Assembly: GCA_038248205.1 (NCBI GenBank)
Contig: JBBRUC010000001.1
Coordinates: forward strand, 32,480-96,479
Origin: Thermoanaerobaculia bacterium
GTDB taxonomy: Bacteria > Acidobacteriota > Thermoanaerobaculia > Multivoradales > UBA5704
Direction: 5' to 3'
Length of the DNA stretch: 64,000 nucleotides
The position numbers and the translations under genes are program-made. Shown in pieces: positions 23,488 to 40,848 of this stretch; the stretch's first letter is position 1; every line of letters begins with the position of its first letter. The notes under the pieces were generated by a model. The model was not told the DNA's origin and did not search any database. It saw nothing but the letters and a program-made list of their open reading frames with translations.

Positions 23488-26400
23488 CTAGTTGCGATGC
23501 GGTGCGCAGAGCAACCCGTTGTTGTAGTCGTCGAGCATCTCGTGCCACGGCGAGGCCTGATTCCAAGCCGAGCTGCTGCCGCGTACGTTGCTGCCGACCG
23601 GGTGGGTCTTCAGCCAGTTGTCGGCAGAGGTGATGATCGAGTCGATGCAGCTCGAGACGTTGCCGACCAGAACGTTCAACTTGGCCGCGATCAGCTGTTT
23701 GGCCAAATCGATCGTCTTGTCGCCCTTGCTCGGGGTGCCGAGAAGCGAGATCGCCTGGGAGACCGAGTAGGTCTTGTTGCCGATCTTGATGCTCTCGACC
23801 GGCCAGGCGCTCGCGTGGTTCTTCCAGTAGCCGATCGTGCCGGTACCCGGCGCCGGAGTGGTCGGCGGGCACTGGACGATGTCGACGTTGATGTCGCCTT
23901 GACCGGTGGTGGGCAGGGAGCCTCCCGAAGAGGGCTGCGTGACCACCGTCCACTTGTACCAACCGGAGGCCCCGTAGTTAAGGTTCTTGCCGTTGGCACC
24001 GACGCCGAGCTGGAACGCCGGCCCGGTGCGGGTGACGTTGATCACCGCGCCGCTGTTGCTGCTGAGTCCGGTCAGGGTTCCGTTGTACCCGGTGTAGTAG
24101 ATCCAGGTTCCCGTGTTGACCGGGCCGCCGTTCTCCGAGTAAGCCGAAGCCATGAGTTCCTTCTTCGGGCTACCGGCGGGGGTGACGGTCGTCCGGCCGG
24201 TGAAAGTGATGCTCACCGTCCAGGCGTTCAACGAGTTGGACAAGCTGCGCAACGTACCGTTCATGTTCGCCGTGCCGTTCGAGTTCTGAATGAACGAGCC
24301 CGGGGCCGGAGTGAACTGGTAATCGGTACCGATGCCCGGGAGCCAGAAGGCATGATTGGCTCCAGCGCCTTGGACCGACGGATCGTTGATCGCTTCGTCC
24401 ACACACTGCGGGTTATTGCTCGGGGAGTTGTAGCCGAAGTCTACGTCGAGCTTCGACTGACCGGCCGCGAGAGCGAACGCCGTGGTGTTCGCCGTGCCGA
24501 TGCCGTCGAGATCGTAGGTCTGCACATAGCCGGCCGGAACGGTCATCACGTCGACCGTCACCGTGTAGTTGCCGGAGAGCAGGTTCGAGAACAGGTAGTT
24601 CCCGTCACCGCTCGTGGTTACGACAGCGACCACGTTGCCGGAGCTGTTGCGCAGCACCACGTCGACGCCGTTGATTCCGAGCTCACCGGCGTCCTGAATG
24701 CCGTCGGCGTCGGTATCGGTCCAGACGCGGTCGCCGACCGAGGCCGTACCGCGGTAGCCGAAGTCAACGTTGAAGTTCGACTGATTGGCCGCGAGAGCGA
24801 CCGTCGCCTTGTTCGGGGTGCCCAGGCCATCGAGATCGTAGGTCTGGGTCAAACCTGCAGGCAGGGTAGAGGTGACGACCTGCACTGAGTAGGTGCCGGC
24901 CAGGAGGTTCTGGAACTGGTAGAGGCCGTCGCCCGCCGTGACCTTGGTGGCGATGACGTTGCCACCGGCGTCGAGCAGGTTGACGGTGACTCCGTTGATG
25001 CCGACTTCGAGCAGGTCCTGCGCGCCGTCGCCGTCGGAATCGATCCAGACCCGGTCACCGATCGAGCCGGTGCCGCGATAGCCGAAGTCGACGTCCGTAC
25101 GATTCTGGCCTCCGGTGATCGAAGCGGCGGCGATGTTCGCCGTCCCGGTTCCGTCGAGATCGTAGGTCTGGGTGAGGCCGGCGGGCAGCGTCGAAGACTC
25201 GACGCGGACCGAATAGCTTCCGGCCGCCAGGTTGGTGAAGGTGTAGTTACCGTCGCCACTGGTAATCGCCGTCTGGAGGACGACGCTACCTGAGCTAAGG
25301 AGCGAGACCGTGACGCCGTTCAGGCCGGACTCGCCGGGATCCTGGACGCCGTTGCCGTTGGTGTCGATCCACAGCCGGTCGCCGATCGAGCCGGTGCCGC
25401 GATAGCCGAAGTCGACGTCGTCGCGTTCCGCCTGAGCGAGCGTAAGCGTGGTGCTCGCGATGTGCGGGGTGGCAATTCCATCGAGATCGAACGTCGGGGC
25501 AAGACCCGCGGGCAGCGTCGAGGTCGCGACGCGGACCGAGTAGCTACCGAGCGGCAGATTGGCGAAGTTGTAGTTGCCGTTGCCGCTCGTCGCGGTGGTG
25601 GCAATGACGTTGCCGCCGTTGTCGAGCAGATCCAGGGTGACGCCGTTGATGCCGGACTCACTCGCGTCCTGGAGGCCATCGCCGTTTTCGTCGAGCCAGA
25701 TACGGTCGCCGATCGCGCCGACGCCCTTGTATCCGAAGTCGGCGTCGGTCCGGTTCTGGCCGGGGCCGAGCATCAGGTCGGTGAAGTTGACCGACGAGAT
25801 CCCGTCGAGGTCGTAACTCGCGGCGAGGCCGGCGGGCAGCGTTGCCGCTTCGATCCGCACCGAGTAGTGGCTCGACGGCAGGTTACCGAACGTGTAGTCG
25901 CCGTCGCCGCTGGTCACCCGGGTCGCCAAGACGTTGCCGCCCTGGTCGAGCAAGGAAACCGTGACGCCGTTGATCCCGTTTTCACCGGCATCTTGGATGC
26001 CGTCGGCGTCGAAGTCGAGCCAGACACGGTCGCCGATCGAGCCGGTACCGCGATAGCCGAAGTCGACGTCGGTCCGGTTCTGGCCGCCGATCAGGCCGAC
26101 CACGGCAAAGTTCGCCGTGCCGATGCCATCGAGGTCATAGGAGGGAACCAGACCGGTCGGGAGGGTGGCGGCTTCGACCCGCACGGCGTAGGAACCGCCC
26201 GGGAGGTTGCCAAAGGTGTAGTTGCCGTCGCCCGCGGTGAGCTGCGAGGCGATGACGTTGCCGCCGCTGTCGAGCAGTGTGACCGTGACGCCGTTCAAGC
26301 CGGCCTCACCGCCGTCCTGGATGCCGTCGTTGTTGAAATCGAGCCAGAGACGATCACCGATCGAGCCGGTGCCGCGATAGCCGAAGTCGACGTCGGCCCG

Positions 26401-29358
26401 GTTCTGGCCGCCCGCGAGGCTCGCCGCGGCGAGGTTCGCCGAGCCGATGCCGTCGAGGTCGTAGGTGGGCGCAAGGCCCGCCGGGAGAGTCGCCGCCACC
26501 ACCCGTACGGAGTAGTTGCCGGCGGGGAGATTGGCGAAGGTGTAGCCGCCGTCTCCGGCGGTTACCTGGGTCGCGAGAACGTTGCCGCCGTTGTCGAGAA
26601 GCTCCACAGTGACGCCGTTGATTCCGGCCTCCCCGGCGTCCTGGACGGTATCGGCGTCGAAATCGAGCCAGACGCGATCACCGATCGAGCCGGTGCCGCG
26701 ATAGCCAAAATCCACGTCGATCCGGTTCTGACCACCGGCCAGAGCGAACAAGGCGATGTGGGCCGTGGCGATGCCGTCGAGGTCGTAGGTCGGAGAGACT
26801 CCCGCCGGCAGGGTGGCCGAGACGACCCGGACCGAGTAGTTGCCCACCGGGAGGTTGGAGAAGGTGTAGTTGCCGTCGCCCGAAGTCACCTGCGATGCGA
26901 CGACGGTACCGCCGGAATTCAAAAGCTCGACGGTGATGCCGTTGAGCCCTGCTTCACCGCCGTCTTGGACGCCGTCGGCGTTGAAATCGAGCCAAACGCG
27001 ATCACCGACCGAAGCCGTGCCGCGATAGCCGAAGTCTACGTCCATCCGGCTCTGTCCGCCGATCAAGGAGACCGAAGCGACGTTGGCCGAGGCCAGACCG
27101 TCGAGGTCGTAGGTCTGGACCGAGCCGGCCGGAAGGGTCGCTGCCGCCACACGCACCGAATAACTTCCGGCGTTCAAGTTCGAGAAGGTGTAGTGGCCGT
27201 CGCCCGAGGTCACCTGGCTCGCGATGACGTTGCCGCCGTTGTCGAGCAACTCGACGGTGACGCCGTTGATGCCGGTCTCGCCGACACCCTGCAAGCCGTT
27301 GCCGTCGGCGTCGAGCCAAACGCGATCGCCGAGCGAACCGGTGCCGCGGTAGCCGAAGTCGACGTTGGTTTTGTTCTCGGCGGCCGCAAGAGAGAAGCTC
27401 GCAATGTTGGCCGAGCTTGTACCGTCGAGATCGAAGGTCGGGGCAACTCCCACCGGAAGGGTAGAGGTTACGACCCGCACCATGTAGCTGCCGGCGGCTA
27501 GATTGTCGAACAGATAGTCGCCGTCGCCGGTCGTTACCTGCGTGGCCAAGACGTTGCCGCCGTTGTCGAGGAGTTCGAGGGTGACGCCATTGATGCCGTT
27601 TTCGCCGCCATCCTGAATGCCGTCGCCGTTGGTGTCGAGCCAGACCCGGTCGCCAACCGAGGCGTCGTTGGCAGCCCCTTCGGAATAACCGAAGTCATAG
27701 GTGAGGACGTTGCCGTTGGTGAGCGTACGGGTGAGCGATTCGCCGCCCGTCGTCGAGGACTTACCCTCCAACGGCTGGCCGGGACCGAAGTTGCTCGCCG
27801 CGACCCGTACTTCATACGTTCCCGGCGAGTCCATGCCGAAGCAGTAGAGGCCGTTGGTGTCGGTACCCGTGTTGTTGGCTACGCACGCCGACCAGTTCGG
27901 GCTCGAAGTCTCGCCCGTGGTGGCCGTAGCGATCACCGATCCGTCGCTCGGACGGACCAGCTCCATCAGAACGCCCGGAATGCCCGCTTCACTCGGATCC
28001 AAAACACCCGGATTCGCTGTGTCCGCCCAGACGAAATCACCCAACAGATAGATCGATTCGTCCGAGCAGGCCGCCACGCGCGGCACATCGTCAGGATCCT
28101 CACCCGGGATCGGGGCGCGGGCCGGTCGCGTCGCACAGGTGTCCGCGAACCAGAAGTTCAGATTCGCGAGGTCCAAACCGATAATCGTGACTTTCCACAT
28201 ACCCGAGGGAAGAGTCGCGCCGCCGTAGACCCAATCCGCATCGCCGGCGAACGGCGAATTGATGCTCGCGATCAGGAACTGCTCCCATTCGAAGCTGCCC
28301 GAGGGGTTATCGTTGAAATAGATGTTGCCGTCCGGATCCGTCACTTCGTAGCGGACGCAGCCGATCCGGTTCGGATCGCCGGGCTCGCCGCGGCGGAAGG
28401 CATCCAAGTTGTTGTCATCCGGCGGTACGCCAGGGCCTTGGACCCCTTCCGGGTTGGCACCGGCGGTCGAGAAGGGGAAGCCGCTGTAGTCGGCGGCGGT
28501 ATCGAAGTCGTCCTCGTCCTCGCACGGATCGAGCGCCACGCCCGAGGGAGAGCCCACGGTCGAATTGGTACCGAAATCGAAGTCGCCGTCGAACATACGG
28601 AGTTCGGTTTCGCCGCCGGGCAGGGTGAAGAAGAACTCGAACGTGCCGTCGTAGGTCGTCGGCGCGGTGAGGAATCCGCCCGGGGGCGGAAACGTGCCCG
28701 GGTAAAGAATCGGGCCGTCGTTGAACAGCTGACGGAACGCGCCAACCAGGCCGAACTGCGGAGTACGGAAGGTCATCGGGTTCGAGGCCGCGACCTTGAT
28801 GTTGCTCTCAAGAACCTCGCCCGGGGCGCACGAGCCGTCGAGGCCGATCACCAAGTTATAGAAGTAGTTGCCGCTGGGCGCCTGGGCAATGGCCCCGTTT
28901 GTGACCGTCACAGCCCACCAATCGTTGTCGGGCATGGCGGCTGAGCTGGAAGTCCAGAGCGGCCCACTCGTCGGATTGACTCCGTTGCCGGTCCAGGTGC
29001 CGATCAGGTTGGCGGGGGCGGTGCTGCCGGTGCGCAGCGGATCCGCATAGAGGGAGTAGATGAGCTGGCGGGAGCCGGCGTCCCAATGCGGACGCGCGGC
29101 GCCATCGGCCATGCCGGTGTCGCCATCGAAGATGTTGACGTCGAACGTCGGGACCGACGCAGGCGCCGCCATGGCAATCTGGACGTTCTGCTCGAACGTC
29201 GCGATGCCGGCGCAACCGAAGCCCATGAAGCGACCGTCGGTGGCGCTTTCCGAGGGAAACGCCGCGAACGGCCCCGGTCCGATCTGAGCCCTCGCAGCGC
29301 CAAGGGCCGTCAGGGCCAGTAGCGCCAAAGTAGCGCACCTACTGTAAAACCTTCTCAT
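23488..29358 (-). CDS. Giant secreted repeat protein 1 (about 1956 aa): conserved N-terminal domain, about 11-12 SdrD-B/Cna-B-like Ca-binding repeats, one X repeat, conserved C-terminal domain
   Basis: Signal peptide MRRFYSRCATLALLALTALGAARAQ, with GGAG before ATG 29358. The roughly 600-aa N-terminal domain is shared with the two downstream paralogs. Tandem roughly 103-aa repeats read GDRVWLDxNGNGxQDxGExGINGVTVxLL...SGDGNYTFxNLPAGxYSVRV...LPAG..PTYDLDG...DVDFGYR, matching SdrD B-domain/Cna-B-like repeats with DxDxDG Ca sites. One roughly 200-aa Cys-bounded X repeat follows. The C-terminal domain GYWKNHASAWPV...LLCAPHRN is nearly identical in gene 2. Confidence 0.8.
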   Translation of the reverse strand: MRRFYSRCATLALLALTALGAARAQIGPGPFAAFPSESATDGRFMGFGCAGIATFEQNVQIAMAAPASVPTFDVNIFDGDTGMADGAARPHWDAGSRQLIYSLYADPLRTGSTAPANLIGTWTGNGVNPTSGPLWTSSSAAMPDNDWWAVTVTNGAIAQAPSGNYFYNLVIGLDGSCAPGEVLESNIKVAASNPMTFRTPQFGLVGAFRQLFNDGPILYPGTFPPPGGFLTAPTTYDGTFEFFFTLPGGETELRMFDGDFDFGTNSTVGSPSGVALDPCEDEDDFDTAADYSGFPFSTAGANPEGVQGPGVPPDDNNLDAFRRGEPGDPNRIGCVRYEVTDPDGNIYFNDNPSGSFEWEQFLIASINSPFAGDADWVYGGATLPSGMWKVTIIGLDLANLNFWFADTCATRPARAPIPGEDPDDVPRVAACSDESIYLLGDFVWADTANPGVLDPSEAGIPGVLMELVRPSDGSVIATATTGETSSPNWSACVANNTGTDTNGLYCFGMDSPGTYEVRVAASNFGPGQPLEGKSSTTGGESLTRTLTNGNVLTYDFGYSEGAANDASVGDRVWLDTNGDGIQDGGENGINGVTLELLDNGGNVLATQVTTGDGDYLFDNLAAGSYMVRVVTSTLPVGVAPTFDLDGTSSANIASFSLAAAENKTNVDFGYRGTGSLGDRVWLDADGNGLQGVGETGINGVTVELLDNGGNVIASQVTSGDGHYTFSNLNAGSYSVRVAAATLPAGSVQTYDLDGLASANVASVSLIGGQSRMDVDFGYRGTASVGDRVWLDFNADGVQDGGEAGLNGITVELLNSGGTVVASQVTSGDGNYTFSNLPVGNYSVRVVSATLPAGVSPTYDLDGIATAHIALFALAGGQNRIDVDFGYRGTGSIGDRVWLDFDADTVQDAGEAGINGVTVELLDNGGNVLATQVTAGDGGYTFANLPAGNYSVRVVAATLPAGLAPTYDLDGIGSANLAAASLAGGQNRADVDFGYRGTGSIGDRLWLDFNNDGIQDGGEAGLNGVTVTLLDSGGNVIASQLTAGDGNYTFGNLPGGSYAVRVEAATLPTGLVPSYDLDGIGTANFAVVGLIGGQNRTDVDFGYRGTGSIGDRVWLDFDADGIQDAGENGINGVTVSLLDQGGNVLATRVTSGDGDYTFGNLPSSHYSVRIEAATLPAGLAASYDLDGISSVNFTDLMLGPGQNRTDADFGYKGVGAIGDRIWLDENGDGLQDASESGINGVTLDLLDNGGNVIATTATSGNGNYNFANLPLGSYSVRVATSTLPAGLAPTFDLDGIATPHIASTTLTLAQAERDDVDFGYRGTGSIGDRLWIDTNGNGVQDPGESGLNGVTVSLLSSGSVVLQTAITSGDGNYTFTNLAAGSYSVRVESSTLPAGLTQTYDLDGTGTANIAAASITGGQNRTDVDFGYRGTGSIGDRVWIDSDGDGAQDLLEVGINGVTVNLLDAGGNVIATKVTAGDGLYQFQNLLAGTYSVQVVTSTLPAGLTQTYDLDGLGTPNKATVALAANQSNFNVDFGYRGTASVGDRVWTDTDADGIQDAGELGINGVDVVLRNSSGNVVAVVTTSGDGNYLFSNLLSGNYTVTVDVMTVPAGYVQTYDLDGIGTANTTAFALAAGQSKLDVDFGYNSPSNNPQCVDEAINDPSVQGAGANHAFWLPGIGTDYQFTPAPGSFIQNSNGTANMNGTLRSLSNSLNAWTVSITFTGRTTVTPAGSPKKELMASAYSENGGPVNTGTWIYYTGYNGTLTGLSSNSGAVINVTRTGPAFQLGVGANGKNLNYGASGWYKWTVVTQPSSGGSLPTTGQGDINVDIVQCPPTTPAPGTGTIGYWKNHASAWPVESIKIGNKTYSVSQAISLLGTPSKGDKTIDLAKQLIAAKLNVLVGNVSSCIDSIITSADNWLKTHPVGSNVRGSSSAWNQASPWHEMLDDYNNGLLCAPHRN
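24430..27700 (-). repeat. Tandem array of about 11 near-identical ~309-bp coding repeats (SdrD-B-like modules) inside giant gene 1; coordinates approximate
   Basis: Recurrent DNA strings such as GTCGCCGATCGAGCCGGTGCCGCGATAGCCGAAGTCGACGTCGG and GACGCCGTTGATGCCG recur with roughly 309-bp periodicity across this span. These are coding repeats, not CRISPR. Confidence 0.7.
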
Positions 29359-29701
29359 AACTCCATTCCCTTTCCCCGGCCAAAAGCATCGCCACGAAGG
29401 CGGGCGCGTCCGGTGCCCCAATGTTGCCGGGTGGGGGCCACCGAACCTCCAATCAAGTAGTCCGCTGCCAAAAATTGCGCAGCGCGAGAGCCAAAGATCG
29501 TCAGTCAACCCTTCGTAAGAGCAAAAAGGCAGTTCCATCTACGGCAAGTAGGAAACGACTCTTCCAAGACTGAGCGCCACATTGGGCTCGATGTTTTGGA
29601 CAGGCGGCACCCTTTGCCCTTCCGTTCAGTCGTTTAGTTGTTTAATGGGAACTTGATGGTTCCCGGGGCGGCTAAGACAATCCGCACTGTAACGAAAGGA
29701 C

Positions 29702-29719
29702 CGTCAGGGTGCCGTCAGG
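29702..29719 (-). promoter_or_regulatory. Heptameric direct repeat pair CGTCAGG-N4-CGTCAGG (11-bp periodicity) upstream of giant gene 1; SARP-type activator site candidate
   Basis: The same CGTCAGGnnnnCGTCAGGAG-N3-4-ATTT(G/T) element occurs upstream of giant gene 2 at 36319..36336. Direct heptads spaced one helical turn apart are the known architecture of SARP-family binding sites. A SARP gene lies at 38602. Confidence 0.4.
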
Positions 29720-29908
29720 AGATATTTGGAGTTTTTCGATCGACCCCTGAGCGGGCTCGTCGGCGCCTGGAGGAACTTCGCGAAAGGGCGCCTTTCAATC
29801 GGGATGGGGGACGCCAGCCAGGAACCTCAAGCGATCCGAGGCGAACCATCAGAACGTGGCACCGCGAGGTGGGCGCTCTTAGAAGTGGATAGAGGAACTG
29901 CGGAAAGC

Positions 29909-29936: not shown

Positions 29937-29945
29937 GCATCAAAA

Positions 29946-32900
29946 CTAGTCGCGGTGCGGAGCGCAGAGCAACCCGTTGTTGTAGTCGTCGAGCATGTTG
30001 TGCCACGGCGAGGCCTGAGACCAGGCCGAGCTGCTGCCCCGGACGTTGCTGCCGACCGGATAGGTCTTCAGCCAGTTGTCCGCCGAAGTGATGGTCGCGC
30101 TGATGCAGCTCGACACGTTTCCGACCAGGACGTTCAACTTGGCCGCGATCAACTGCTTGGCCAAATCGATCGACTTGTCGCCCTTGCTCGGCGTGCGGAG
30201 CAGGTTGATCGCCTGAGAGACCGTGTAGGTCTCGTTACCGATCTTGATGCTGGTGACCGGCCAAGCGCTCGCGTGGTTCTTCCAGTAACCGATCGTACCG
30301 GTGCCCGGAGCGGGCGTGGTCGGCGGGCACTGGCCGATGTCGACGTTGATGTCGCCCTGGCCGCTGGTCGGCAGAGCCGAGCCCGACGTCGGCTGGGTCA
30401 CCACCGTCCAGTTCAGCCAGCCCGAACCGCCGTAGTGGAGGTTCTTGCCGTTGGCGCCCGTGCCCACCTGGAACGCCGGACCGACGCGCACCAGATTGAG
30501 CTTGGCACCCGCGGCGCTGCCGGTTCCCGTGAGGGTACCGGTGGCACCCGTGTAGTAGTACCAGGTGGCAGTCTTGATCGGACCGCCGTTCTCGCTGTAG
30601 GCGCTTGCCGCAAGCTCCTTCTTCGGGTTGCCGGCGGGAGCCGTCGTGGTGAAGCCCGAGAAGGTGACGTCCACCGCGAAGCCAAAGTTCGGGTTCGAGG
30701 TGCTTACCAGGGTGCCGGTCAAACGGGCTGTACCGTCGGCCTTCTCGACCAACGAGCCGTTGCCCGGTGAGAAGACGAGATCGGTCGAAATGCCCGGCAG
30801 CCAGATCGCGTGATGGGCGCTCGTTGCGTTGACCGACGAATCGTTGTCGGCCTTGTTGGCGCACTGCACGCAGTCGAAGATGTCGAGGTTGATGTCGCCT
30901 TGGCCGGTCGAGGGATAGCTGCTGCCCGAGGGCTGGGTCGCCGTCCAATGAATCCAGCCGGACGCCCCATAGTGGAGGTTCTTGCCGTTGGCGCCGACGC
31001 CCACTTGGAACGACGGACCGACGTTGGTGATGCTCAAGACGACGCCGGCATTGCCGTCGATGCCCGTCAAGACTCCGCCGAGGTAGCCGTAGTAGCGCCA
31101 GGTGGCCGGATCGATCGGTCCGCCGTTATTGACGTACGCGCTCCCGGCGAGTTCCTTCTTCGGGTTGCCCGGCCCCGGGGTCGTGGTGCGGGCGAAGAAG
31201 TTGATAGCGACCGTGAAGGCGTTGTTCGGATTCGACTGGCTCCGCATCGTACCGGTCAGCGTTGCCGAGCCGTCCGCCTTCTCGAGGAAGGCGCCAGGGT
31301 CGGGGGTGAAGGAGTAGTCGGTGCCGATACCGGGCAGCCACAACGCGTGATTGGCCGCGCTGCCGTTGTACGCCGGATCGTTGTTAGCCTGGTTGGCGCA
31401 GCTCTTCGCGTCGGTCTTGGACTGGTAGCCGAAATCGACGTCGGAGCGGTTCTGGCCCGCAGCCAGTGCCACCGTCGCGCGATGGGCGGTTCCGAGACCA
31501 TCCAGGTCGTAGGTTTGAACGTAACCGGCCGGAAGCGTCGCGCTTTCGACCCGCACCGAGTAGCTACCGGCCGGCAGATTGCCGAACAGGTAGTTGCCGT
31601 TGCCCGAAGTCACCTGGCTGGCGAGGGCGTTGCCACCCGTGTCGAGCAATGTGACGGTGACGCCGTTGATCCCGGCCTCGCCGCCGTCCTGCACCCCGTT
31701 GCCGTTGGCGTCTTCCCACACCCGATCGCCGATCGTCCCTTGCCCCCTGTAGCCAAAGTCGACGTCGGTCCGGTTCTGACCGCCGGTTAAAGCAGCCGTC
31801 GCGATGTGAGCGGTGCCGACTCCATCCAGGTCGTAGCTCGGAACGAGCCCCGCCGGAACGGTCGCCGATTCAACACGGACTTTGTACGTCCCCGCCGGAA
31901 GGTTCGCGAAGGTGTAGTTGCCGTTGCCCGTGGTCACCTGGGTCGCCAGGGCCACGTTGGCAGAGTTGAGGAGAGTAACGGTGACGCCGTTGATCCCGAC
32001 CTCGCCGCCGTCCTGCACACCGTTGGCGTTGAAATCGAGCCAGACCCGGTCACCGAGCGAGGCCGTACCCCGATAGCCGAAGTCCACGTCGGTCCGGTTC
32101 TGAGCCGCCGTCAACGAGGCCGCCGCCGTATGCGGAGTGCCGATCCCGTCGAGGTCGTAGCTCGGGGCCAGACCCGCCGGCAGCGTTGAGGAAACCACCC
32201 GGACCGTATAGTTGCCGGCCGAGAGGTTGGTGAAGTTGTAGGTGCCGTCACCCGACGTCACCTGGGAAGCCACCACGGTGCCGCCGGAATTCAGCAGCTC
32301 GACCGTCACGCCGTTGATCCCGACTTCGCCGCCGTCCTGCACCCCATTGGCGTTGAAATCGAGCCAGACCCGATCGCCGAGCGAGGCCGTGCCCCGGTAG
32401 CCGAAGTCCACGTCCGTCCGGTTCTGTCCCGCCGCCAGAGCGAACGAGGCGCTGTTCGCCGTCCCGAGGCCGTCCAAATCGAACGTCGCTGCCAAGCCTG
32501 CGGGAAGGGTCGCCGGAACCACCTCGACCCGATAGGTACCCGCGACGACGTGGGCGAAGGTGTAGATCCCGTCGCCAGCCGTCACCTGGGTCTCGACGGT
32601 CACGCCGTGCACAGTGTCCACCAAGCGAACCGTCACGCCGTTGATGCCGGTTTCGCCCGCATCCTGGACGCCGTTGCCGTTCGTGTCGTTCCAAACCCGG
32701 TCACCGATCGAGCCGTAGCTGACCGGCGGGCACTCGAACAGGTCGAGGTTGATGTCGCCCTGGCCCGAGCCGACGAGGGTCTCGCCGCCCGACGGCTGGC
32801 TCGTCACCTGCCACTGGTACCAACCCGAGCCACCGAAGTGGAGGTTCTTGTTGTTGGCGCCGACTCCCAGCTGGAAGGCCGGTCCGGTGCTGGAAATCGA

Positions 32901-35900
32901 GATCGAGCCGCCCGCATAGGCGCTCACCCCGACCAGGGTTCCCGAGTAGGACGTGTAGTAGCTCCAGCTCGCCGAATCCGCCACGCCGCCGTTCTCGACG
33001 TAGGCACCAGCGGAAAGCTCCTTCTTCGGGCTGCCCGGAGGAGTGGTCGCGGTGTAGCCCGAGAACAGGATGTCCACCTGGAACCCGTGGGTCGGGCTCG
33101 AAAGGCTGTACATCGTTCCCGTCAGGTGCGCCGTGCCGTCCGCGTTGCGAACGAACGTGCCGTCGACCGGACTGAACTGGAAGTCGGTACCGATCCCCGG
33201 CAGCCAGAACGCGTGGTTGTACGTCGAGCCCAAAACCGCGGGATCGTTGTTGGCGTTGTTTGCGCAGGACGAGCAGTTGCCGAAGTCGACGTTGATGTCA
33301 CCCTGGCCGGACTGCGTGAGCGCCGGACCGCTCGCGGGCTGCGAGGTGACGTTCCACACGAACCAGGCCGACGCCCCGTCGAGCAGGTTTTTGTTGTTGG
33401 CACCCGTGCCGAGCTGGAAGGCGGAGCCGGTGTTGGAAATGCCGATCACCGATCCGGCATACGCATCGATGCCGGTGAGCGTACCGGTGAAGCTCGTGTA
33501 GTACGTAAACGTCGCCGTGTTGACGGGTCCGCCGTTTTCCGAATAGGCGTTTCCGGAGAGCTCTTTCTTCGGGCTGCCCGGAGGAGCCGTCGCGGTCAAG
33601 CCGCTGAGCACCACGTCGACGACGAAGGCCTCGCTCGAATTCGCCGTCCGCCGCACGATGCCCGTCAGGCGAGCGGTTCCGTCCGCCCGCTGTACGAAGC
33701 TGCCGGTCGCCGGAGCGAACTGGAAGTCCAAACCGATGCCGGGCAGGTAGAACGCGTGCCCATCCGGGTTGCTGCCGTAGGCCGGATTGTTGAACGAGCC
33801 CTGCGCGCAGGTCTCGGTGTCGTGCGTGCGATAGCCGAAATCCACGTCGGTGCGATTCTGACCGGCGGCCACGGTGGCCGTTGCCCGGTGCGGTGTCGCG
33901 ACACCGTCGAGGTCATAGGTCGGGCCGAAGCCGGCCGGCAACGTGGTCGAATCGACCACCACCGTGTAGCTTCCGGCCGCCAGGTTGCCGAAGGTGTAGT
34001 TGCCGTCGCCCGAGGTCACCTGCGTCGCGACGACCGTGTTGGTCCCGTCGAGCAGGCGAACGGTGACGCCGTTGATCCCAACCTCGCCGGCATCCTGCAC
34101 ACCGTCGCCGTCGAGATCGCTCCAGACCCGATCGCCCAAGCTGCCGGGCGCCGGAGGCTGCCGGTAGCCGAAATCCACGTCGGTCCGGTTCTGCGACTGC
34201 GCGAGAGCGAAGCTCGCGATGTTCGCCGTACCGGTGCCGTCCAGGTCATAGGTCTGGGCCAAGCCCGCGGGCAGCGTCGCGGTCACCACGCGAACCGAGT
34301 AGTTGCCGGCCGCCAGGTTGTCGAACAAGTAGTTGCCGTTCCCCGAGGTGATTTGGCTGGCCACGACGTTGCCGCCGTTGTCGAGCAGATCAACCGTGAC
34401 GCCGTTGATGCCGTTCTCCCCGCCATCTTGAACGCCGTCGCCATCGGCATCGAGCCAGATCCGGTCGCCGACCGAGGCGTCGTTCGTCGCCGCCTCGGCG
34501 TAACCGAAGTCATACGTTAGCTCGTTGTCGGCCGAAAGCGTTCGGGTGAGCGACTCGCCGCCCGTCGTCGAGGACTTACCTTCCAACGGCTTGCCCGGGC
34601 CGAAGTTGCTTGCCGCGACCCTCACCTCGTAGGTGCCGGGAGCGTCCATGCCGAAGCAGTAGAGACCGTTGATATCGGTTCCCGTGTTGTTCGCCACGCA
34701 CGCCGACCAGTTCGGGCTCGTCGTGTCGCCCGTCTTGGCCGTAGCGATCACCGATCCGTCGCTCGGACGAACCAGCTCCATCAGAACGCCCGGAATGCCC
34801 GCTTCGCCCGGATCCAACACGCCCGGGTTTCCGGTGTCCGACCAGACGAAATCGCCTATCAGGTAGATGGATTCATCCGAACAAGCCGCCACGCGCGGAA
34901 CGTTGTCCGGATCTTCCCCCGGGATCGGATCGCGGGCCGGGCGCGTCGCACAGGTGTCCGCGAACCAGAAATTCAGATTCGCTAGGTCCAGCCCGATGAT
35001 CGTGACTTTCCACATCCCCGAGGGAAGCGTCGCGCCGCCGTAGACCCAATCCGCATCGCCGACGAACGGCGAATTGATGCTCGCGATCAGGAACTGCTCC
35101 CACTCGAAGCTGCCCGAGGGGTTGTCGTTGAAATAGATGTTGCCGTCTGGATCCGTCACTTCGTAGCGGACGCAGCCGATCCGATTCGGATCGCCGGGCT
35201 CGCCACGGCGGAAGGCATCCAAGTTGTTGTCATCAGGGGGAATACCGGGGCCTTGGACCCCTTCGGGGTTGGCGCCGGTGGTCGAGAAGGGGAAGCCGCT
35301 GTAGTCGGCGGCAGTATCGAAGTCGTCCTCGTCCTCGCACGGATCGAGCGCTACGCCGGAAGGCGAGCCGACGGTCGAGGCGGTACCGAAATCGAAGTCG
35401 CCGTCGAACATCCGCAGCTCGGTTTCTCCGCCGGGAAGAGTGAAGAAGAACTCGAACGTGCCGTCATACGTGGTCGGCGCGGTGAGGAACCCGCCCGGGG
35501 GCGGGAAGGTACCGGGATAGAGAATTGGACCGTCATTGAAGAGCTGACGAAACGCGCCAACCAGACCGAACTGCGGAGTCCGGAAGGTCATCGGGTTCGA
35601 GGCCGCGACCTTGATGTTGCTCTCAAGAACCTCGCCCGGGGCGCACGAGCCGTCGAGGCCGATCACCAAGTTATAGAAGTAGTTGCCACTGGGCGCCTGG
35701 GCAACGGCCCCGTTGGTGACCGTCACGGCCCACCAATCGTTGTCCGGCATGGTGCTTGAGCTGGAAGTCCAGAGCGGCCCACTCGTCGGATTGGCTCCGT
35801 TGCCGGTCCAGGTGCCGATCAGATCGGCCGGCGAGGTACTGCCATTGCGCAACGGGTCCGCATACAGAGAGTAAATGAGCTGGCGATTGCCGACGTCCCA

Positions 35901-36182
35901 ATGAGGACGGGCGGCGCCGTCGGGCATCCCGGTTTCGCCGTCGAAGATGTTGACGTCGAACGTAGCATTGGCGGCCGGCGCAGCCATCGCGATTGTGACG
36001 TTCTGCTCGAACGTTGCAATCCCGGCGCAACCGAAGCCAAGGAAACGTCCATCCGTGGCGCTCTGCGACGGAAACGCCGCAAAGGGACCCGGCCCTATCT
36101 GGGCTGATGCTCTACCGAACCCCAACAAGGCTCCTATCGCCACCAAGAGTACAGCTCTCAAAACTTGTCGCTGAGCTTTCAT
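29946..36182 (-). CDS. Giant secreted repeat protein 2 (about 2078 aa): N-terminal domain, 2 SdrD-B, 2 X repeats, 4 SdrD-B, 3 X repeats, C-terminal domain
   Basis: Signal peptide MKAQRQVLRAVLLVAIGALLGFGRASAQ, starting at ATG 36182. The N-terminal 600 aa and the C-terminal 130 aa are over 90% identical to gene 1 (for example QIGPGPFAAFPS(E/Q)SATDGRF(M/L)GFGCAGIATFEQNV). Five copies of the roughly 200-aa X repeat read C..N.NDPA..G....HAFWLPGIGTD..F.P..G.F......GTA.LTG.......P...F.V...F.G.T.T.PPGSPKKEL...AY.ENGG.......YYT...GTL.G.......I....TGPAFQLG.GAN.KNL..G.SGW..W.V.SQP.......GQGDIN.D...C. Confidence 0.8.
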   Translation of the reverse strand: MKAQRQVLRAVLLVAIGALLGFGRASAQIGPGPFAAFPSQSATDGRFLGFGCAGIATFEQNVTIAMAAPAANATFDVNIFDGETGMPDGAARPHWDVGNRQLIYSLYADPLRNGSTSPADLIGTWTGNGANPTSGPLWTSSSSTMPDNDWWAVTVTNGAVAQAPSGNYFYNLVIGLDGSCAPGEVLESNIKVAASNPMTFRTPQFGLVGAFRQLFNDGPILYPGTFPPPGGFLTAPTTYDGTFEFFFTLPGGETELRMFDGDFDFGTASTVGSPSGVALDPCEDEDDFDTAADYSGFPFSTTGANPEGVQGPGIPPDDNNLDAFRRGEPGDPNRIGCVRYEVTDPDGNIYFNDNPSGSFEWEQFLIASINSPFVGDADWVYGGATLPSGMWKVTIIGLDLANLNFWFADTCATRPARDPIPGEDPDNVPRVAACSDESIYLIGDFVWSDTGNPGVLDPGEAGIPGVLMELVRPSDGSVIATAKTGDTTSPNWSACVANNTGTDINGLYCFGMDAPGTYEVRVAASNFGPGKPLEGKSSTTGGESLTRTLSADNELTYDFGYAEAATNDASVGDRIWLDADGDGVQDGGENGINGVTVDLLDNGGNVVASQITSGNGNYLFDNLAAGNYSVRVVTATLPAGLAQTYDLDGTGTANIASFALAQSQNRTDVDFGYRQPPAPGSLGDRVWSDLDGDGVQDAGEVGINGVTVRLLDGTNTVVATQVTSGDGNYTFGNLAAGSYTVVVDSTTLPAGFGPTYDLDGVATPHRATATVAAGQNRTDVDFGYRTHDTETCAQGSFNNPAYGSNPDGHAFYLPGIGLDFQFAPATGSFVQRADGTARLTGIVRRTANSSEAFVVDVVLSGLTATAPPGSPKKELSGNAYSENGGPVNTATFTYYTSFTGTLTGIDAYAGSVIGISNTGSAFQLGTGANNKNLLDGASAWFVWNVTSQPASGPALTQSGQGDINVDFGNCSSCANNANNDPAVLGSTYNHAFWLPGIGTDFQFSPVDGTFVRNADGTAHLTGTMYSLSSPTHGFQVDILFSGYTATTPPGSPKKELSAGAYVENGGVADSASWSYYTSYSGTLVGVSAYAGGSISISSTGPAFQLGVGANNKNLHFGGSGWYQWQVTSQPSGGETLVGSGQGDINLDLFECPPVSYGSIGDRVWNDTNGNGVQDAGETGINGVTVRLVDTVHGVTVETQVTAGDGIYTFAHVVAGTYRVEVVPATLPAGLAATFDLDGLGTANSASFALAAGQNRTDVDFGYRGTASLGDRVWLDFNANGVQDGGEVGINGVTVELLNSGGTVVASQVTSGDGTYNFTNLSAGNYTVRVVSSTLPAGLAPSYDLDGIGTPHTAAASLTAAQNRTDVDFGYRGTASLGDRVWLDFNANGVQDGGEVGINGVTVTLLNSANVALATQVTTGNGNYTFANLPAGTYKVRVESATVPAGLVPSYDLDGVGTAHIATAALTGGQNRTDVDFGYRGQGTIGDRVWEDANGNGVQDGGEAGINGVTVTLLDTGGNALASQVTSGNGNYLFGNLPAGSYSVRVESATLPAGYVQTYDLDGLGTAHRATVALAAGQNRSDVDFGYQSKTDAKSCANQANNDPAYNGSAANHALWLPGIGTDYSFTPDPGAFLEKADGSATLTGTMRSQSNPNNAFTVAINFFARTTTPGPGNPKKELAGSAYVNNGGPIDPATWRYYGYLGGVLTGIDGNAGVVLSITNVGPSFQVGVGANGKNLHYGASGWIHWTATQPSGSSYPSTGQGDINLDIFDCVQCANKADNDSSVNATSAHHAIWLPGISTDLVFSPGNGSLVEKADGTARLTGTLVSTSNPNFGFAVDVTFSGFTTTAPAGNPKKELAASAYSENGGPIKTATWYYYTGATGTLTGTGSAAGAKLNLVRVGPAFQVGTGANGKNLHYGGSGWLNWTVVTQPTSGSALPTSGQGDINVDIGQCPPTTPAPGTGTIGYWKNHASAWPVTSIKIGNETYTVSQAINLLRTPSKGDKSIDLAKQLIAAKLNVLVGNVSSCISATITSADNWLKTYPVGSNVRGSSSAWSQASPWHNMLDDYNNGLLCAPHRD
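31400..32700 (-). repeat. Tandem SdrD-B-like coding repeats (4 units) inside giant gene 2; a further 2 units lie at about 33830..34560; coordinates approximate
   Basis: Same ~309-bp unit as the gene 1 array. Confidence 0.6.
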
Positions 36183-36318
36183 CCGATCACCCTTTCTCCG
36201 ATGGTCCAAAAGACTTCGCGCGCTTTCCGAACTGCCGCCCGACAAGACTCGCAAACCTAAGTAAAACCAAGAGTTTGGCCTGGAACTACCCGCTTGTAGG
36301 GTGATCTTTTTCGGCGAT

Positions 36319-36336
36319 CGTCAGGAAATCGTCAGG
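36319..36336 (-). promoter_or_regulatory. Heptameric direct repeat pair CGTCAGG-N4-CGTCAGG upstream of giant gene 2
   Basis: Exact copy of the gene 1 upstream element, with the same 11-bp spacing, GAG extension and downstream ATTT. Confidence 0.4.
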
Positions 36337-36591: not shown

Positions 36592-38325
36592 CTACCGCGC
36601 CCTGGAACTCCGCATCCCGGAGAAACCGAAGTCGAAGGTCAAAACGTTGGCCGCGGTGAGGGTGCGGGTCAAAGAGCTGTTCCCGGTCGTCGCCACTTGG
36701 CCGAAGAGCGCCCCTCCCGAGGTGAAGTTACGCGCCGCCACACGAACCTCGTACGTGCCCGGAACATCCTGACCAAAGCAGTACAGACCGTTCGAGTCAA
36801 CGCCCGTGCTGCTCGCCCGGCAGGCTGCCCAGTTCGGACTCGTCGGGTCGCCCGTGACCGCGGTGGCCAGTACCACGCCGTCGCTCGGACGGATCAACTC
36901 CATCACCACACCCGGCATGCCCACCTCGCCCGGATCCAGAACCCCCGGATTCGCCGTGTCCGCCCAGACGAGATTTCCCAAGAGATAAATCGATTCGTCC
37001 CCGCAGGCTGGTACCCGCGGCACGTCGATCGGATCTTCGCTCGGTAGCGGCTCATGAGCCGGACGCGTCGCGCAAGTCTTCGCATACCAGAAGTTCAGAT
37101 TGGCCAAGTCCAAGCCTACGATCGAAACCTTCCAGCTTCCCGCGGGAAGCAGGGCGTCGCCGTAGACATAGTCCGCATCCCCGACGAACGGCGAGTTGAC
37201 GCTCGCGATCAGAAATTGCTCCCACTCGAAGCTGCCCGAAGGGTTGTCGTTGTAATAGACATTGCCGACCGGATCCTGGACTTCGTAGCGTACGCAACCG
37301 ATGCGGTTCGGATCCCCCGGCTCACCGCGCCGGAATGCGTCGAACTTGTTGTCGTCGCTGGGAATGCCTGGCCCCTGGACCCCTTCGGGATTGGCTGCGA
37401 CGACGACGAATGGAAAGTTGCCGTAATCGGCAGGCGTATCGGGGTCGTCCTCGTCCGCACACTCGTCGAGAAACAGGCCCGAAGGCACTCCGCGGGCCGC
37501 ATCGGTGCCGAAATCGAAATCGCCATCGATCAGGCGCAGCTCCGTCTCGGATGCGGAAAGATTAAAATAGAGGTCGAAAGAGCCGTCGTAGGTGGTCGGC
37601 GCGGAAACGAAACTACCGGTAAGCGGCGCCGTCGGCAAGGAGCCCGGATAGAGGATCGGCAGGTCTGCTGCGAGCTGTCGTAGCGCGCCGACCAAACCGA
37701 AGTGAGAGGTGTTGAAGCTGACGGGGTAGGAAGCCGCGATCTTGAAGTTGCTTTCCAATATTTCGCCTACTTCGCAGGCTCCATCCGTATCGATCACCAG
37801 ATTGTAAAAGTAGTTTCCGCTTGGCGTCTGGGCGATGGCAGCGTTGGTGATTGTCACCCCCCACCATGCGTTGTCCGGCATGTTCGCCGCGGTGGAAGTC
37901 CACAGCGGACCGGCGATTGGATTTCTCTTATTGCCGTACCAAACACCGATTAAATCGGCCGGCAAAATACTCCCTTTGCGCGACGGATCGGCGTGCAGCG
38001 CAAATTTCAGCTGGCGGGTGCCAAGATCCCAGTGGGCGGTGTCCATACCGTCGAGCCCACCGGTTTCTCCATCGAATAGATTGAGGGAGAAGGTCGAGGT
38101 GGACGCGGGCACGGCAAGCGCTACCTGAACATTGCGTTCCAAGGTCGCGAGGCCCGCACAGGCAAGGCCTAGGAATCGCCCGTCCGTAGCGCTCTCCGAC
38201 GGGAAAGACGCGAGAGGCTTTGGCCCCAATTGGCCTCGCGCGGAAACGAACCCCAGGAGAGTTCCAAGGATCGAGAAAAGAGCGACCCGCAAAACATTCG
38301 ACAACGAACGAATCACGCTACTCAT
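36592..38325 (-). CDS. Truncated paralog 3 (about 577 aa): N-terminal domain of the giant proteins only, no repeat region or C-terminal domain
   Basis: Signal peptide MSSVIRSLSNVLRVALFSILGTLLGFVSARGQ. Roughly 50% identical to the N-terminal domains of genes 1 and 2 (FDGDFDFGT, NPEGVQGPGIP.DDN, DAFRRGEPGDPNRIGCVRYEV, GSFEWEQFLIAS, WKVSIVGLDLANLNFW, YCFG.D.PGTYEVRVAA.NF). AAGGGGGG Shine-Dalgarno before ATG 38325. Confidence 0.75.
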   Translation of the reverse strand: MSSVIRSLSNVLRVALFSILGTLLGFVSARGQLGPKPLASFPSESATDGRFLGLACAGLATLERNVQVALAVPASTSTFSLNLFDGETGGLDGMDTAHWDLGTRQLKFALHADPSRKGSILPADLIGVWYGNKRNPIAGPLWTSTAANMPDNAWWGVTITNAAIAQTPSGNYFYNLVIDTDGACEVGEILESNFKIAASYPVSFNTSHFGLVGALRQLAADLPILYPGSLPTAPLTGSFVSAPTTYDGSFDLYFNLSASETELRLIDGDFDFGTDAARGVPSGLFLDECADEDDPDTPADYGNFPFVVVAANPEGVQGPGIPSDDNKFDAFRRGEPGDPNRIGCVRYEVQDPVGNVYYNDNPSGSFEWEQFLIASVNSPFVGDADYVYGDALLPAGSWKVSIVGLDLANLNFWYAKTCATRPAHEPLPSEDPIDVPRVPACGDESIYLLGNLVWADTANPGVLDPGEVGMPGVVMELIRPSDGVVLATAVTGDPTSPNWAACRASSTGVDSNGLYCFGQDVPGTYEVRVAARNFTSGGALFGQVATTGNSSLTRTLTAANVLTFDFGFSGMRSSRAR

Positions 38326-38601: not shown

Positions 38602-40848
38602 GTGATTCGAGTTCGGTTATTCGGCGGCTTCGAGGTCTGGCACGGAGATCGGCAGGTGCGAGGCTTCGAGTCCCAGAAGGTCCGAGCCCTCTTCGCCTAT
38701 TTGGCCTGTCAGTCGGCGCGCGCATTCAGTCGCGATCACCTCGCCGGCCTGCTCTGGCCCGAACAGGAAGACGACGGCGCACGGCACGCGCTGCGCCAAG
38801 CGCTCTATAACTTGCGTTCTGCGCTTCCCGGGCGTGACTCGGCGAACCCGCCGCTTCTGGTGAGCCACGGCGAGATCCGTATCAACCCGGCGGCGGGCCT
38901 TTGGGTCGACGTCCATGCCTTCGAGGAGTCGATCAAGCGTGGCGCCGCGCGGGACGCCGCCGACCCTCATCACCTCGCGACCGCGGTCCAATTGTATCGA
39001 GGCGATTTTTTGGTGGGTTTTTTCGTTCGCGACAGCAACACGTTCGAGGAGTGGCTGATCGCCGAGCAGGAGCGCCTTCGAGAGGCGACGGTCGAGGCGC
39101 TACACACCTTGATCGAGAGCTACCGGCGCCGGGGCGAATATCGATTTGGCCTGCACTATGCCCGACGGCTCGTCGCCCTGGAACCTCTCGCCGAGGAACC
39201 CCGACGCAACCTGATGCAGTTCTACGCGATGACCGGGCGCCGCAGCCAGGCGCTTGCCGAGTACGAGGATCTGGTGGCCCTCCTCGATCGCGAACTCGGT
39301 GTCGATCCCTTAGGGGAAACCCTGGAACTCTACGAATCGATCCGGGACGACGCGCCGACGCAAGGGGTTCCTCTCGCGGACGGCGAGCCGATCGGCCCGA
39401 TCATCCCCCTGGCGGGGCGCCGCGGCGCTTGGGATCGGCTTCGCGACAGCTGGCGCAGGGCTCTCTCCGGAGAGACCCCCGTCACTTTGGTCGTGGGAGA
39501 GACCGGCATCGGCAAAACCCGGCTGATCCGTACTTTTCTCGACGCGGTGAGCGGCTCTCGCCGAATCGTCGTCCTGCGCGGCGCAGGCCGGCCCTCGACT
39601 CTGCCGATACCGTTTCTCCCCTGGCTCGACCTCTTGCGTGGCGCGTTTGACGAGGCGACCGAAGGCGGCGGCCCCGACCCCGCGGCGCTTACGCCCCAAA
39701 AGTTCGGAGACCTCGCACGCCTTCTGCCCGAGATCGGATCTCGCCGCCCCGAGCTACCCTCTCCGGCGCCGTTGAAACGCGCAGCCGAGCGGCGACGGTT
39801 CTTCGAGAACGTGATCGACTACCTCGGCGCTTTTTGCTCCGCCGGCCCAGGAGTGGCGACCGTGCCGTTGGTGATCTTTCTCGACGACCTTCACCTGGTC
39901 GACGAGGACTCCCTGGAGCTTCTCTACGCGGCGATCTCTCGATTGCATGGGCAACCCTGTTGGTTCCTGATCGCCTCCGAGGTGATCGACCCGTCCGAGG
40001 CCCCGCCCTTCTTCTCTGAAGTTATCGCGCTCGCCGAGCGCGTCGAGATTCGACGGTTCGACGACAGCGCGATCGAAGAGATCGCCGCCTCCTTGGTTGG
40101 CGACGATCGTGCGAGAGAGCTGTCTCACTGGCTCGCCGGCCGGAGTAAAGGCCTGCCGTTCGCGATCGCGGAGCTGATCAACCTGCTCTGGGACGAGGGG
40201 CTGCTGACGCCTGGCGAAAACGGCATATGGCAGCTCGCATCCTCTTTGGAAACCGCGGAGGTGCCCACCAGCGGAGAACTCGGCGCCCTGCTCGGCGAAC
40301 GGGTCCGGCGGCTCCCCTCCTCGATCCGACGGCTGGCGATCCAAGCGGCGTTTGCCGGCGGCAGCTTCGAGGCCGACCTGCTCCAAAAGGCGGCTGACGA
40401 ACACCCGGCGGTGGTCGAAATCGGCCTTGAGCTGCTGCTCAAGCGGTGGCTGATCCGCCAGAGCATTCGGTACTGGTCGACTTTCGGCCGGGCATCCGAT
40501 GTCGCACTGTGGAACCGGGGCGCCCGGCGGGGCAGCTTCGAGTTCGCGCACCAGCAGGTGCGCGAGGCCCTGGCGTCTTCCGTCGTGCCGGAACGGCAAA
40601 GAGCCCTCCACGCCCGGATCGCCTCGACTCTAGAGACTCTGGCCGCGGATCATCTGGAGAGCCACTTCGAAGAACTCGCCGGGCATTACCTGGCAGCCGA
40701 GATGTGGAACCGAGCCCTCCCCTACCTTGAACTGGCGGAGAACCGAGCCCGGGGCCTGTTCGCCCGCACCGCCGCGGCGCGCTACGCCGCCGCGGCAGCC
40801 GAGGCGCGATTCCACCTCACCACCGAAAAATCTGGAACGACAGAGTAA
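38602..40848 (+). CDS. AfsR-like SARP-family transcriptional activator (OmpR-type winged helix, BTAD, NB-ARC-type P-loop ATPase, C-terminal helical repeats)
   Basis: N-terminus VIRVRLFGGFEVWHGDRQVRGFESQKVRALFAYLA (SARP DNA-binding domain). The BTAD region has MQFYAMTGRRSQALAEYEDLVALLDRELGVDP. Walker A VVGETGIGKTRL. GTG start at 38602, divergent from paralog 3. Confidence 0.8.
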   Translation: MIRVRLFGGFEVWHGDRQVRGFESQKVRALFAYLACQSARAFSRDHLAGLLWPEQEDDGARHALRQALYNLRSALPGRDSANPPLLVSHGEIRINPAAGLWVDVHAFEESIKRGAARDAADPHHLATAVQLYRGDFLVGFFVRDSNTFEEWLIAEQERLREATVEALHTLIESYRRRGEYRFGLHYARRLVALEPLAEEPRRNLMQFYAMTGRRSQALAEYEDLVALLDRELGVDPLGETLELYESIRDDAPTQGVPLADGEPIGPIIPLAGRRGAWDRLRDSWRRALSGETPVTLVVGETGIGKTRLIRTFLDAVSGSRRIVVLRGAGRPSTLPIPFLPWLDLLRGAFDEATEGGGPDPAALTPQKFGDLARLLPEIGSRRPELPSPAPLKRAAERRRFFENVIDYLGAFCSAGPGVATVPLVIFLDDLHLVDEDSLELLYAAISRLHGQPCWFLIASEVIDPSEAPPFFSEVIALAERVEIRRFDDSAIEEIAASLVGDDRARELSHWLAGRSKGLPFAIAELINLLWDEGLLTPGENGIWQLASSLETAEVPTSGELGALLGERVRRLPSSIRRLAIQAAFAGGSFEADLLQKAADEHPAVVEIGLELLLKRWLIRQSIRYWSTFGRASDVALWNRGARRGSFEFAHQQVREALASSVVPERQRALHARIASTLETLAADHLESHFEELAGHYLAAEMWNRALPYLELAENRARGLFARTAAARYAAAAAEARFHLTTEKSGTTE

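Follow-up and report, generated by a model that had tools for sequence, protein, structure and literature searches.

The 64,000-nucleotide stretch analysed here (the window) belongs to a Thermoanaerobaculia contig (JBBRUC010000001.1), and the element under study is a pair of CCTGACG heptamers, separated by four nucleotides, that precedes two genes encoding giant secreted proteins. Judged from comparison across related loci, this element (the box) is to near certainty a functional cis-regulatory site, and the adjacent gene, encoding an AfsR-like protein of the SARP (Streptomyces antibiotic regulatory protein) family, quite probably supplies the activator that binds it. In total, 73 non-redundant boxes were found in 1.04 Mb of related Thermoanaerobaculia/Acidobacteriota loci, against approximately 0.3 expected; because the box is conserved to this degree, it must be regarded as more than a chance recurrence. 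The features on which this reading depends are listed below, with positions counted from the first nucleotide of the window; the box types, the N-terminal domain (N-domain) and the small open reading frame (ORF) are described further on.

36319..36336, minus strand: candidate SARP box of the 'b' type, CCTGACG-ATTT-CCTGACG; exact match, predicted to occupy about -39..-22 of the gene 2 promoter
36304..36309, minus strand: predicted -10 hexamer of the gene 2 promoter, AAAGAT; NANNNT pattern, 9 nt past the 3' repeat (offset 10)
29702..29719, minus strand: candidate SARP box of an 'a'-like type, CCTGACG-GCAC-CCTGACG; exact match, 92 nt upstream of a small-ORF relic
29686..29691, minus strand: predicted -10 hexamer TACAGT; 10 nt past the 3' repeat
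29946..36182, minus strand: gene 2, secreted giant protein of 2078 aa, predicted SARP target; signal peptide, N-domain of ~560 aa, SdrD_B/CarboxypepD_reg repeats
23488..29358, minus strand: gene 1, secreted giant paralog of 1956 aa; assigned from its signal-peptide start and Pfam matches
38602..40848, plus strand: large SARP-type regulator of 748 aa, predicted box binder; OmpR-type winged helix-turn-helix (wHTH), BTA domain, AAA_16 STAND ATPase, helical C-terminal region

The original prediction had described identical heptads, CGTCAGG-N4-CGTCAGG in the plus-strand reading, at a spacing of one helical turn upstream of both giant genes. Exact string matching recovered both copies, CGTCAGGGTGCCGTCAGG at 29702-29719 and CGTCAGGAAATCGTCAGG at 36319-36336, with 11 bp between heptamer starts at each site and AG directly after both on the plus strand. 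All three paralogs of the window (genes 1, 2 and 3) lie on the minus strand, so that the element in gene orientation is CCTGACG-N4-CCTGACG. The boxes do stand upstream of both giant genes as had been claimed, but not in immediate adjacency: with start codons assigned from conserved signal peptides (ATG 29358 for gene 1, ATG 36182 for gene 2 and ~38325 for gene 3), box and ATG are separated by a leader of 343 nt in gene 1 and by one of 136 nt in gene 2, and the minus-strand orientation had been overlooked. A flanking (T/C)ATTT, reported to follow 3-4 nt later, actually follows after 1 nt and 3 nt at the two sites and is conserved in no related locus, and that part of the description did not survive. 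The region upstream of the third paralog gave no match in the window scan, in agreement with the claim that gene 3 lacks the element.

Within the window itself, the recurrence is modestly unusual. No further CGTCAGG-N4-CGTCAGG occurs in the 64 kb on either strand with up to two mismatches, and a relaxed scan of the window for the CTGACG core combined with the -10 geometry returned no site beyond the 29702 and 36319 copies. The single heptamer is not over-represented (10 copies vs. 12.9 expected), and a recurrent 7-mer with an 11-bp period at two loci appeared in 100 of 2000 dinucleotide shuffles of the window (5%); taken alone, these statistics are weak and suggestive. A MAFFT alignment of the three upstream regions found nothing alignable apart from the box, a sigma-70 consensus scan called no promoter in either intergenic region, and a terminator consensus scan gave two weak hits near 36267-36303, at chance level. 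Additionally, an Rfam scan of 29200-38700 returned only a sub-threshold small RNA match at 36499-36538 and no riboswitch or leader family.

Conservation across related loci carries the main argument, and it was followed in two sets. An alignment search with the N-domain, restricted to one genome per species, yielded 19 loci, 15 of them from Thermoanaerobaculia/Acidobacteriota metagenome-assembled genomes (MAGs). In 9 of the 15 acidobacterial loci, the box is found in gene orientation with at most one mismatch at 99-446 nt upstream of the homolog (12 copies), and a SARP homolog is present in all 9 boxed loci, usually directly upstream in divergent orientation; in the same MAGs, five loci of paralogs with no SARP within 10 kb have no box either. 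A metagenome scan anchored on the SARP alignment added 80 further loci (639 kb), in which ~75 boxes with at most one mismatch were detected against ~0.2 expected. Nearly all loci with a SARP of at least 46% identity contain boxes, which mostly vanish below 35%. Of the 69 core-exact boxes in the SARP-anchored loci, 68 face away from the SARP gene, and the median distance between the SARP start codon and the start of the nearest box is 121 nt. The boxes are conserved, with orientation and -10 offset fixed, in loci whose proteins share just 30-60% identity. Orthologs of the gene 2 box with the ATTT spacer were found in four loci (L001, L002, L003 and L020) and a near-identical one with a GTTT spacer in L014; the downstream sequence of these five is identical or nearly identical too. 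At some sites (L003, L006 and L100) a third unit is present another 11 bp upstream.

Two outlying loci were also observed, L079 and L080, in which the SARP is ~35% identical and the DNA is AT-richer. In these, CCTGACG-TTTT-CCTGACG followed by TAGAAT persists, along with a divergent small ORF (FLLRVWRS...SGERNSF), and the downstream gene encodes a different secreted repeat protein. The triad of SARP, box and small ORF may therefore extend beyond Thermoanaerobaculia.

The conserved sequence continues past the heptamers in a manner consistent with a promoter. A NANNNT hexamer starts 9-10 nt past the 3' heptamer (offset 10-11) in 70 of the 73 boxes, against a background of 0.028 per position; its consensus is cAnAcT, in which the A (67/73) and the T (64/73) stand four bases apart. 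An extra conserved T directly precedes each heptamer and another lies two bases past the first, giving an 11-bp unit of T-CCTGACG-N-T-N, two per promoter. If the hexamer is taken as a -10 element at -12..-7, the two units would fall at -40..-30 and -29..-19, and transcription would be expected, from the conservation of this arrangement, to start near 36297 for gene 2 and near 29679 for the 29702 box; the orthologous box of L002 carries TAGACT at the offset matching the TACAGT of the window. The canonical place of a -35 element, 16-18 bp upstream of the -10, reads ACG[A/C]T[C/T], with at most two of six matches to TTGACA. Because no -35-like hexamer stands 16-18 bp from the conserved -10, the promoter looks activator-dependent.

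Two hallmarks of SARP-dependent promoters were thus found, namely heptameric direct repeats one helical turn (11 bp) apart, in the window and at the 73 sites, and a weak or absent -35. In characterised SARP promoters, the direct repeats are 11 or 22 bp apart and the 3' repeat lies ~8 bp from the -10 (PMC10936776, PMC10972967). At the afsS promoter, where the -35 is poor and the -10 (CACTGT) weak, AfsR covers two 11-bp units from -40 to -19 and contacts only the first 8 bp of each (PMC10936776). The comparative geometry, with predicted coordinates of -40..-19 as in the afs box, therefore lends support to the earlier proposal of a SARP operator overlapping the -35 region. A promoter of an extracytoplasmic function (ECF) type sigma factor, with a -35/-10 pair 16-18 bp apart, was considered and rejected, because 20 bp and 9 bp separate the repeats from the hexamer, which is itself of the housekeeping type (TAnnnT-like).

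The regulator gene next to the boxes had been described as a full-length SARP-ATPase, and its product proved to be of this type, with Trans_reg_C (weak), BTAD and AAA_16 matches. The BTAD match (PF03704, 87.2 bits) covers residues 102-248 over the full profile length, and the AAA_16 ATPase match (82.8 bits) covers residues 270-448. The segment of residues 3-248 aligns over its whole length with the AfsR SARP module (8hvr, E = 6e-8; also 8k60 and 8jke), as well as with EmbR (2fez, E = 1e-4 to 2e-4), and the orthologs in L104 and L105 pass the Trans_reg_C threshold. For residues 450-748, no Pfam TPR match was found, and a partial match to NCBIfam TOMM_kin_cyc was well below the cut-off. By these matches and alignments, the 38602-40848 product is classed as a 'large SARP'.

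The link between this protein and the box is drawn most closely at the recognition helix. The helix, ARHALRQAxYNLRS, is near-invariant among orthologs that are ~50% identical elsewhere, and Q66 and N70 of the 748-aa protein align to the base-contacting T88 and R92 of AfsR, an exchange that is consistent with binding to a different heptamer. Among 73 SARP-anchored loci compared for the helix motif LRQAxYNL[RK], 39 of the 45 with Q and N have the box vs. 2 of the 28 without (Fisher p = 6e-12, without phylogenetic correction). Among the six box-less Q/N loci, four hold forms with two mismatches, nCTGACG-N4-nCTGACG, in which the -10 is correctly offset; at the divergent-helix homologs the CCTGACG box is mostly absent, and other repeat motifs were not searched for there. 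The SARP is the sole regulator conserved across the related loci. Combined, box conservation, orientation and co-occurrence with both the SARP gene and its recognition helix give good support to the suggestion that the giant genes form a SARP regulon.

In the mechanism proposed, a side-by-side dimer of the 748-aa regulator would bind both repeats, one protomer to each, at approximately -40..-19. Sitting in place of the -35, the dimer would substitute for the missing -35 contact and recruit or adapt the housekeeping RNA polymerase holoenzyme. Leftward transcription would be activated from 36336 for gene 2 and from 29719 for the leader and gene 1, with the STAND ATPase domain, and possibly a nearby Ser/Thr kinase, gating the activity of the regulator.

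The most serious competing explanation accepts the box as a real operator but assigns it to another winged-helix protein, for example a response regulator of the OmpR/PhoB family, with the SARP a mere conserved neighbour. OmpR-type winged-helix proteins typically bind direct repeats with a 10-11-bp spacing, and the architecture of the box would suit any of them; gene 3, which adjoins the SARP gene, is moreover box-less. This explanation is nevertheless unlikely, given that no other regulator is conserved across the loci, that box presence tracks the SARP recognition helix, that the boxes lie so close to the SARP start codon and almost all point away from it, and that same-genome paralogs without a SARP have no box. 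Slightly less probable again is the possibility that the SARP binds and represses, roadblocking the -35 region, or acts chiefly as an autoregulator on the divergent promoter of its own gene. Repressors also act at sites overlapping the core promoter, and the first box lies 40-200 nt from the SARP start codon in most loci, a geometry that allows autoregulation. Against repression, the lack of a -35-like hexamer gives the promoter an activator-dependent appearance, the geometry is identical to that of the activating afs box, and boxes are also found far from the SARP gene, before each downstream cassette; furthermore, all characterised SARPs are activators (PMC10972967). Activation rather than repression by the SARP is what we infer here.

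The remaining two explanations are both given very little credence. In one, the 18-mer is functionless, a product of chance or a duplication leftover of paralogs that are 84% identical. Genes 1 and 2 are indeed recent paralogs or gene-converted, and 5% of shuffled windows hold some recurrent 7-mer with an 11-bp period, but the intergenic regions are otherwise unalignable, and the conservation across species, the fixed orientation and the fixed -10 offset refute this account. In the other, the sequence is read from the plus strand or works as RNA, as the Shine-Dalgarno-like AGGAG and TTG start of an ORF at 29726-30091, as a 3' untranslated region (UTR) or terminator signal belonging to the gene upstream, or as a 5'-UTR riboregulator. 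CGTCAGGAG does contain AGGAG, and TTG follows at 29726 and 36346. However, the ORF at 29726-30091 overlaps the 3' end of gene 2 in antisense and no equivalent of it exists at the other box, the conserved -10 occurs only on the gene side of the box, there is no Rfam match, the direct repeats form no hairpin, and most boxes are in divergent intergenic regions with no co-oriented upstream gene.

Several observations weigh against a SARP-activated regulon. The Trans_reg_C match of the 748-aa protein, at 23.1 bits, falls short of the gathering score (26.2), and the CCTGACG heptamer is unrelated to the TCGAG-like boxes of actinobacterial SARPs. The SARP loci L021, L034 and L051 have no box, so that the link is not absolute, and the loci behind the association statistics are not phylogenetically independent. 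Both the -10 assignment and the -40..-19 coordinates are predictions from sequence. Within the window, gene 3 is the paralog nearest the SARP gene and is without a box, and for gene 1 to be expressed from the box at 29719, transcription would have to pass the relic ORF and the conserved hairpin in the 343-nt leader.

The genes that the boxes precede fall into a recurrent pattern. Altogether, 67 of the 73 boxes are upstream of either secreted N-domain/SdrD_B genes (39) or a conserved small ORF of ~80 aa (28). The former are designated the 'b' type, with a spacer that is usually ATyT and a 5' repeat that is often G/A-CTGACG, and the latter the 'a' type, with a spacer that is usually CTnn. The giant proteins consist of a signal peptide and an N-terminal region of ~560 aa, mostly without a Pfam family, followed by 7-11 SdrD_B/CarboxypepD_reg repeats; genes 1 and 2 share their 84% identity across the first ~780 residues. 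The small ORF has the core SFLVRxWxEPRE...R.x[VI][RK][DN]L.TGEE.Y..DP..LGxL, with examples in L024, L047 and L102 in addition to L002, and has 218 database homologs, all annotated as hypothetical. Pfam and NCBIfam searches assigned it to no family. Its AlphaFold model predicts three beta-strands and a helix (pLDDT, a per-residue confidence score, of 80, and >90 in the core), for which Foldseek found no significant fold match in the PDB. Judged by gene order at the boxes, the CCTGACG box has this ~80-aa protein family as its most frequent first target.

A reverse search from the small ORF agreed with this arrangement. Three independently retrieved homologs on long contigs each had a divergent wHTH-BTAD-AAA_16 gene as neighbour and SdrD_B genes downstream, with products as long as 4893 aa. 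In these loci, no small ORF or giant gene was without a box of its own, oriented like the gene and carrying the -10 at offset 10. A further arrangement was observed in L102 (5465-6866), where three tandem small-ORF paralogs (78, 80 and 76 aa), each with a box, precede a 3649-aa SdrD_B protein, showing the cassette to be modular and open to amplification. In seven loci (L026, L027, L042, L047, L053, L059 and L100), an AsnB-like/asparagine-synthase-like gene follows the small ORF, and in L100 (6397-9560) a 63-aa ORF and a 413-aa PqqD-domain protein are also present. These AsnB/PqqD genes sit between the small ORF and the SdrD_B gene, under the same putative SARP-box promoters, and resemble lasso-peptide biosynthesis genes; the small ORFs of the AsnB-containing loci end in W-x-x-[QR]-H.

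The two types bear on the history of the 29702 copy, downstream of which two further features were recognised.

29539..29610, minus strand: 23-aa relic, MPPVQNIEPNVALSLGRVVSYLP and then stop, of the ~80-aa small-ORF family; recognised by alignment with L002 (17590-17830)
29472..29505, minus strand: possible decayed 'b'-type site, ACTGACG-ATCT-TTGGCTC, N10, CAATTT (offset 11); ~140 nt upstream of the gene 1 ATG

The counterpart of the 29702-29719 box in the L002 alignment is the box at 17498, which precedes a full-length small ORF at +92, and a 162-nt in-frame deletion relative to L002 took out the conserved core of the small ORF in the window. By this alignment, the 29702 copy is of the promoter type that elsewhere drives the ~80-aa small ORF, and gene 1 is probably transcribed from this box through the relic leader. 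The 29472-29505 block is largely conserved with L002, including the half-site and the -10-like hexamer, with a run of 36 identical columns; only its 5' repeat fits the consensus, the 3' repeat being degenerate, and the block overlaps a short CGCTGC/GCAGCG hairpin. It may be a decayed second 'b' promoter or a leader RNA structure.

The remaining window genes of relevance flank the SARP gene.

36592..38325 (or to 38352), minus strand: gene 3, short paralog of 577-586 aa with the N-domain and one SdrD_B repeat; divergent from the SARP gene, upstream region box-less
41797..44340, plus strand: Ser/Thr protein kinase of 847 aa (Pfam Pkinase); two genes downstream of the SARP gene

The box-less state of gene 3 has a counterpart in the closest relative, L004, where a gene-3-like paralog beside the SARP gene is likewise box-less. 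As a separate observation, L021 shows no box beside its SARP gene, with only 333 nt of upstream sequence covered, and may resemble the gene 3 arrangement. Downstream of the SARP gene, a DinB-like gene is followed by the Ser/Thr kinase gene. Synteny of this kinase with the SARP gene is limited to the closest relatives (L001-L003, L014 and L020) and is not seen in more distant loci; its membership of the system, as an upstream input to the SARP in the manner of AfsK and AfsR, is speculative. Two other repeats with an 11-bp period were noticed in the window. On the plus strand at 41502-41519, CGCCAAG-N4-CGCCAAG, written CGCCAAGA-AAT-CGCCAAGA, resembles the gene 2 box; an 80-aa ORF on the minus strand (41460-41702) encloses it, the -10 geometry is missing, and it was set aside as probably due to chance. 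At 29318-29336, also on the plus strand, an 8-mer direct repeat, AGTAGCGC-CAA-AGTAGCGC, falls in the signal-peptide coding region of gene 1 and is likely coincidental.

Reviews describe SARPs as occurring 'exclusively' in actinobacteria/actinomycetes and as activators of antibiotic gene clusters. All named relatives identified in this study are Thermoanaerobaculia/Acidobacteriota MAGs, outside that range, and literature searches found no paper linking SARPs to Acidobacteriota. The box and the genes behind it could represent the first case beyond the Actinobacteria in which an operator and regulon are defined for a SARP-type activator (AfsR-like, with a STAND ATPase). A conserved CCTGACG-N4-CCTGACG box, positioned just as the afs box is, would then drive a modular cassette across soil Thermoanaerobaculia, made up of the ~80-aa protein, the giant secreted SdrD-repeat proteins and, in some loci, the lasso-peptide-like AsnB/PqqD genes; we hold the prospects of this broader claim to be evenly balanced. 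If it is true, the 'sigma adaptation' mode of activation by SARPs would not be specific to actinobacteria, and the small protein would be suggested as a conserved, AfsS-like first output of the switch. What the analysis offers is a full-length AfsR-like protein in uncultured soil Acidobacteriota with a sequence-searchable operator and more than 70 predicted target promoters. Confirmation would make the regulon predictable from sequence in organisms that are not cultivable and would bring giant proteins, secreted or at the surface, and an uncharacterised family of small proteins under SARP control. It would also supply a natural setting in which to test if the mechanism of AfsR, where a dimer takes over from the -35 contact, operates with an RNA polymerase from outside the actinobacteria. 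The boxes would then be ready probes for electrophoretic mobility shift assays and in vitro transcription, and overexpression of the SARP would be a handle for switching on these loci in heterologous hosts.

Among known systems, the closest likeness is to AfsR and afsS of S. coelicolor and to the ActII-ORF4, DnrI and RedD promoters, which likewise have 11-bp direct repeats with units at approximately -40..-19 in place of a poor -35; in the AfsR-afsS case, the 3' repeat is likewise 8-10 bp from a weak -10. AfsR is also a large SARP (OmpR-type wHTH, BTA and NOD-type ATPase) encoded adjacent to its targets, the small ORF recalls afsS in being the nearest target in most related loci, and the nearby Ser/Thr kinase gene recalls AfsK in the closest relatives only. 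There are also differences. The host is a member of the Acidobacteriota (Thermoanaerobaculia) rather than of the Actinobacteria, the heptamer is CCTGACG and not TCGAG-like or afs-like, and the base-contact positions hold Q and N vs. T and R in AfsR. The ATPase is of the AAA_16 type, with no TPR domain detected, and the predicted targets are secreted SdrD_B giants and an 80-aa protein instead of an antibiotic pathway, with lasso-peptide-like AsnB/PqqD genes added in some loci.

The Pho box, in which 7-bp direct repeats with 4-bp spacers replace the -35, offers a second comparison. OmpR/PhoB boxes share with the present element the 7+4 bp architecture, the overlap with the -35 and recognition by a winged-helix fold. 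The adjacent regulator differs from these proteins in having no receiver domain (no Response_reg match) and in carrying BTA and STAND ATPase domains, and no two-component genes are conserved across the related loci. EmbR of M. tuberculosis (a SARP-like wHTH-BTA-FHA protein under the control of the kinase PknH) resembles the system in its wHTH-BTA module, in possible control by a neighbouring kinase and in having cell-envelope or surface targets, not antibiotics. It differs in its FHA domain, which is absent here, in an operator that is not defined as a CCTGACG repeat, and in belonging to another phylum.

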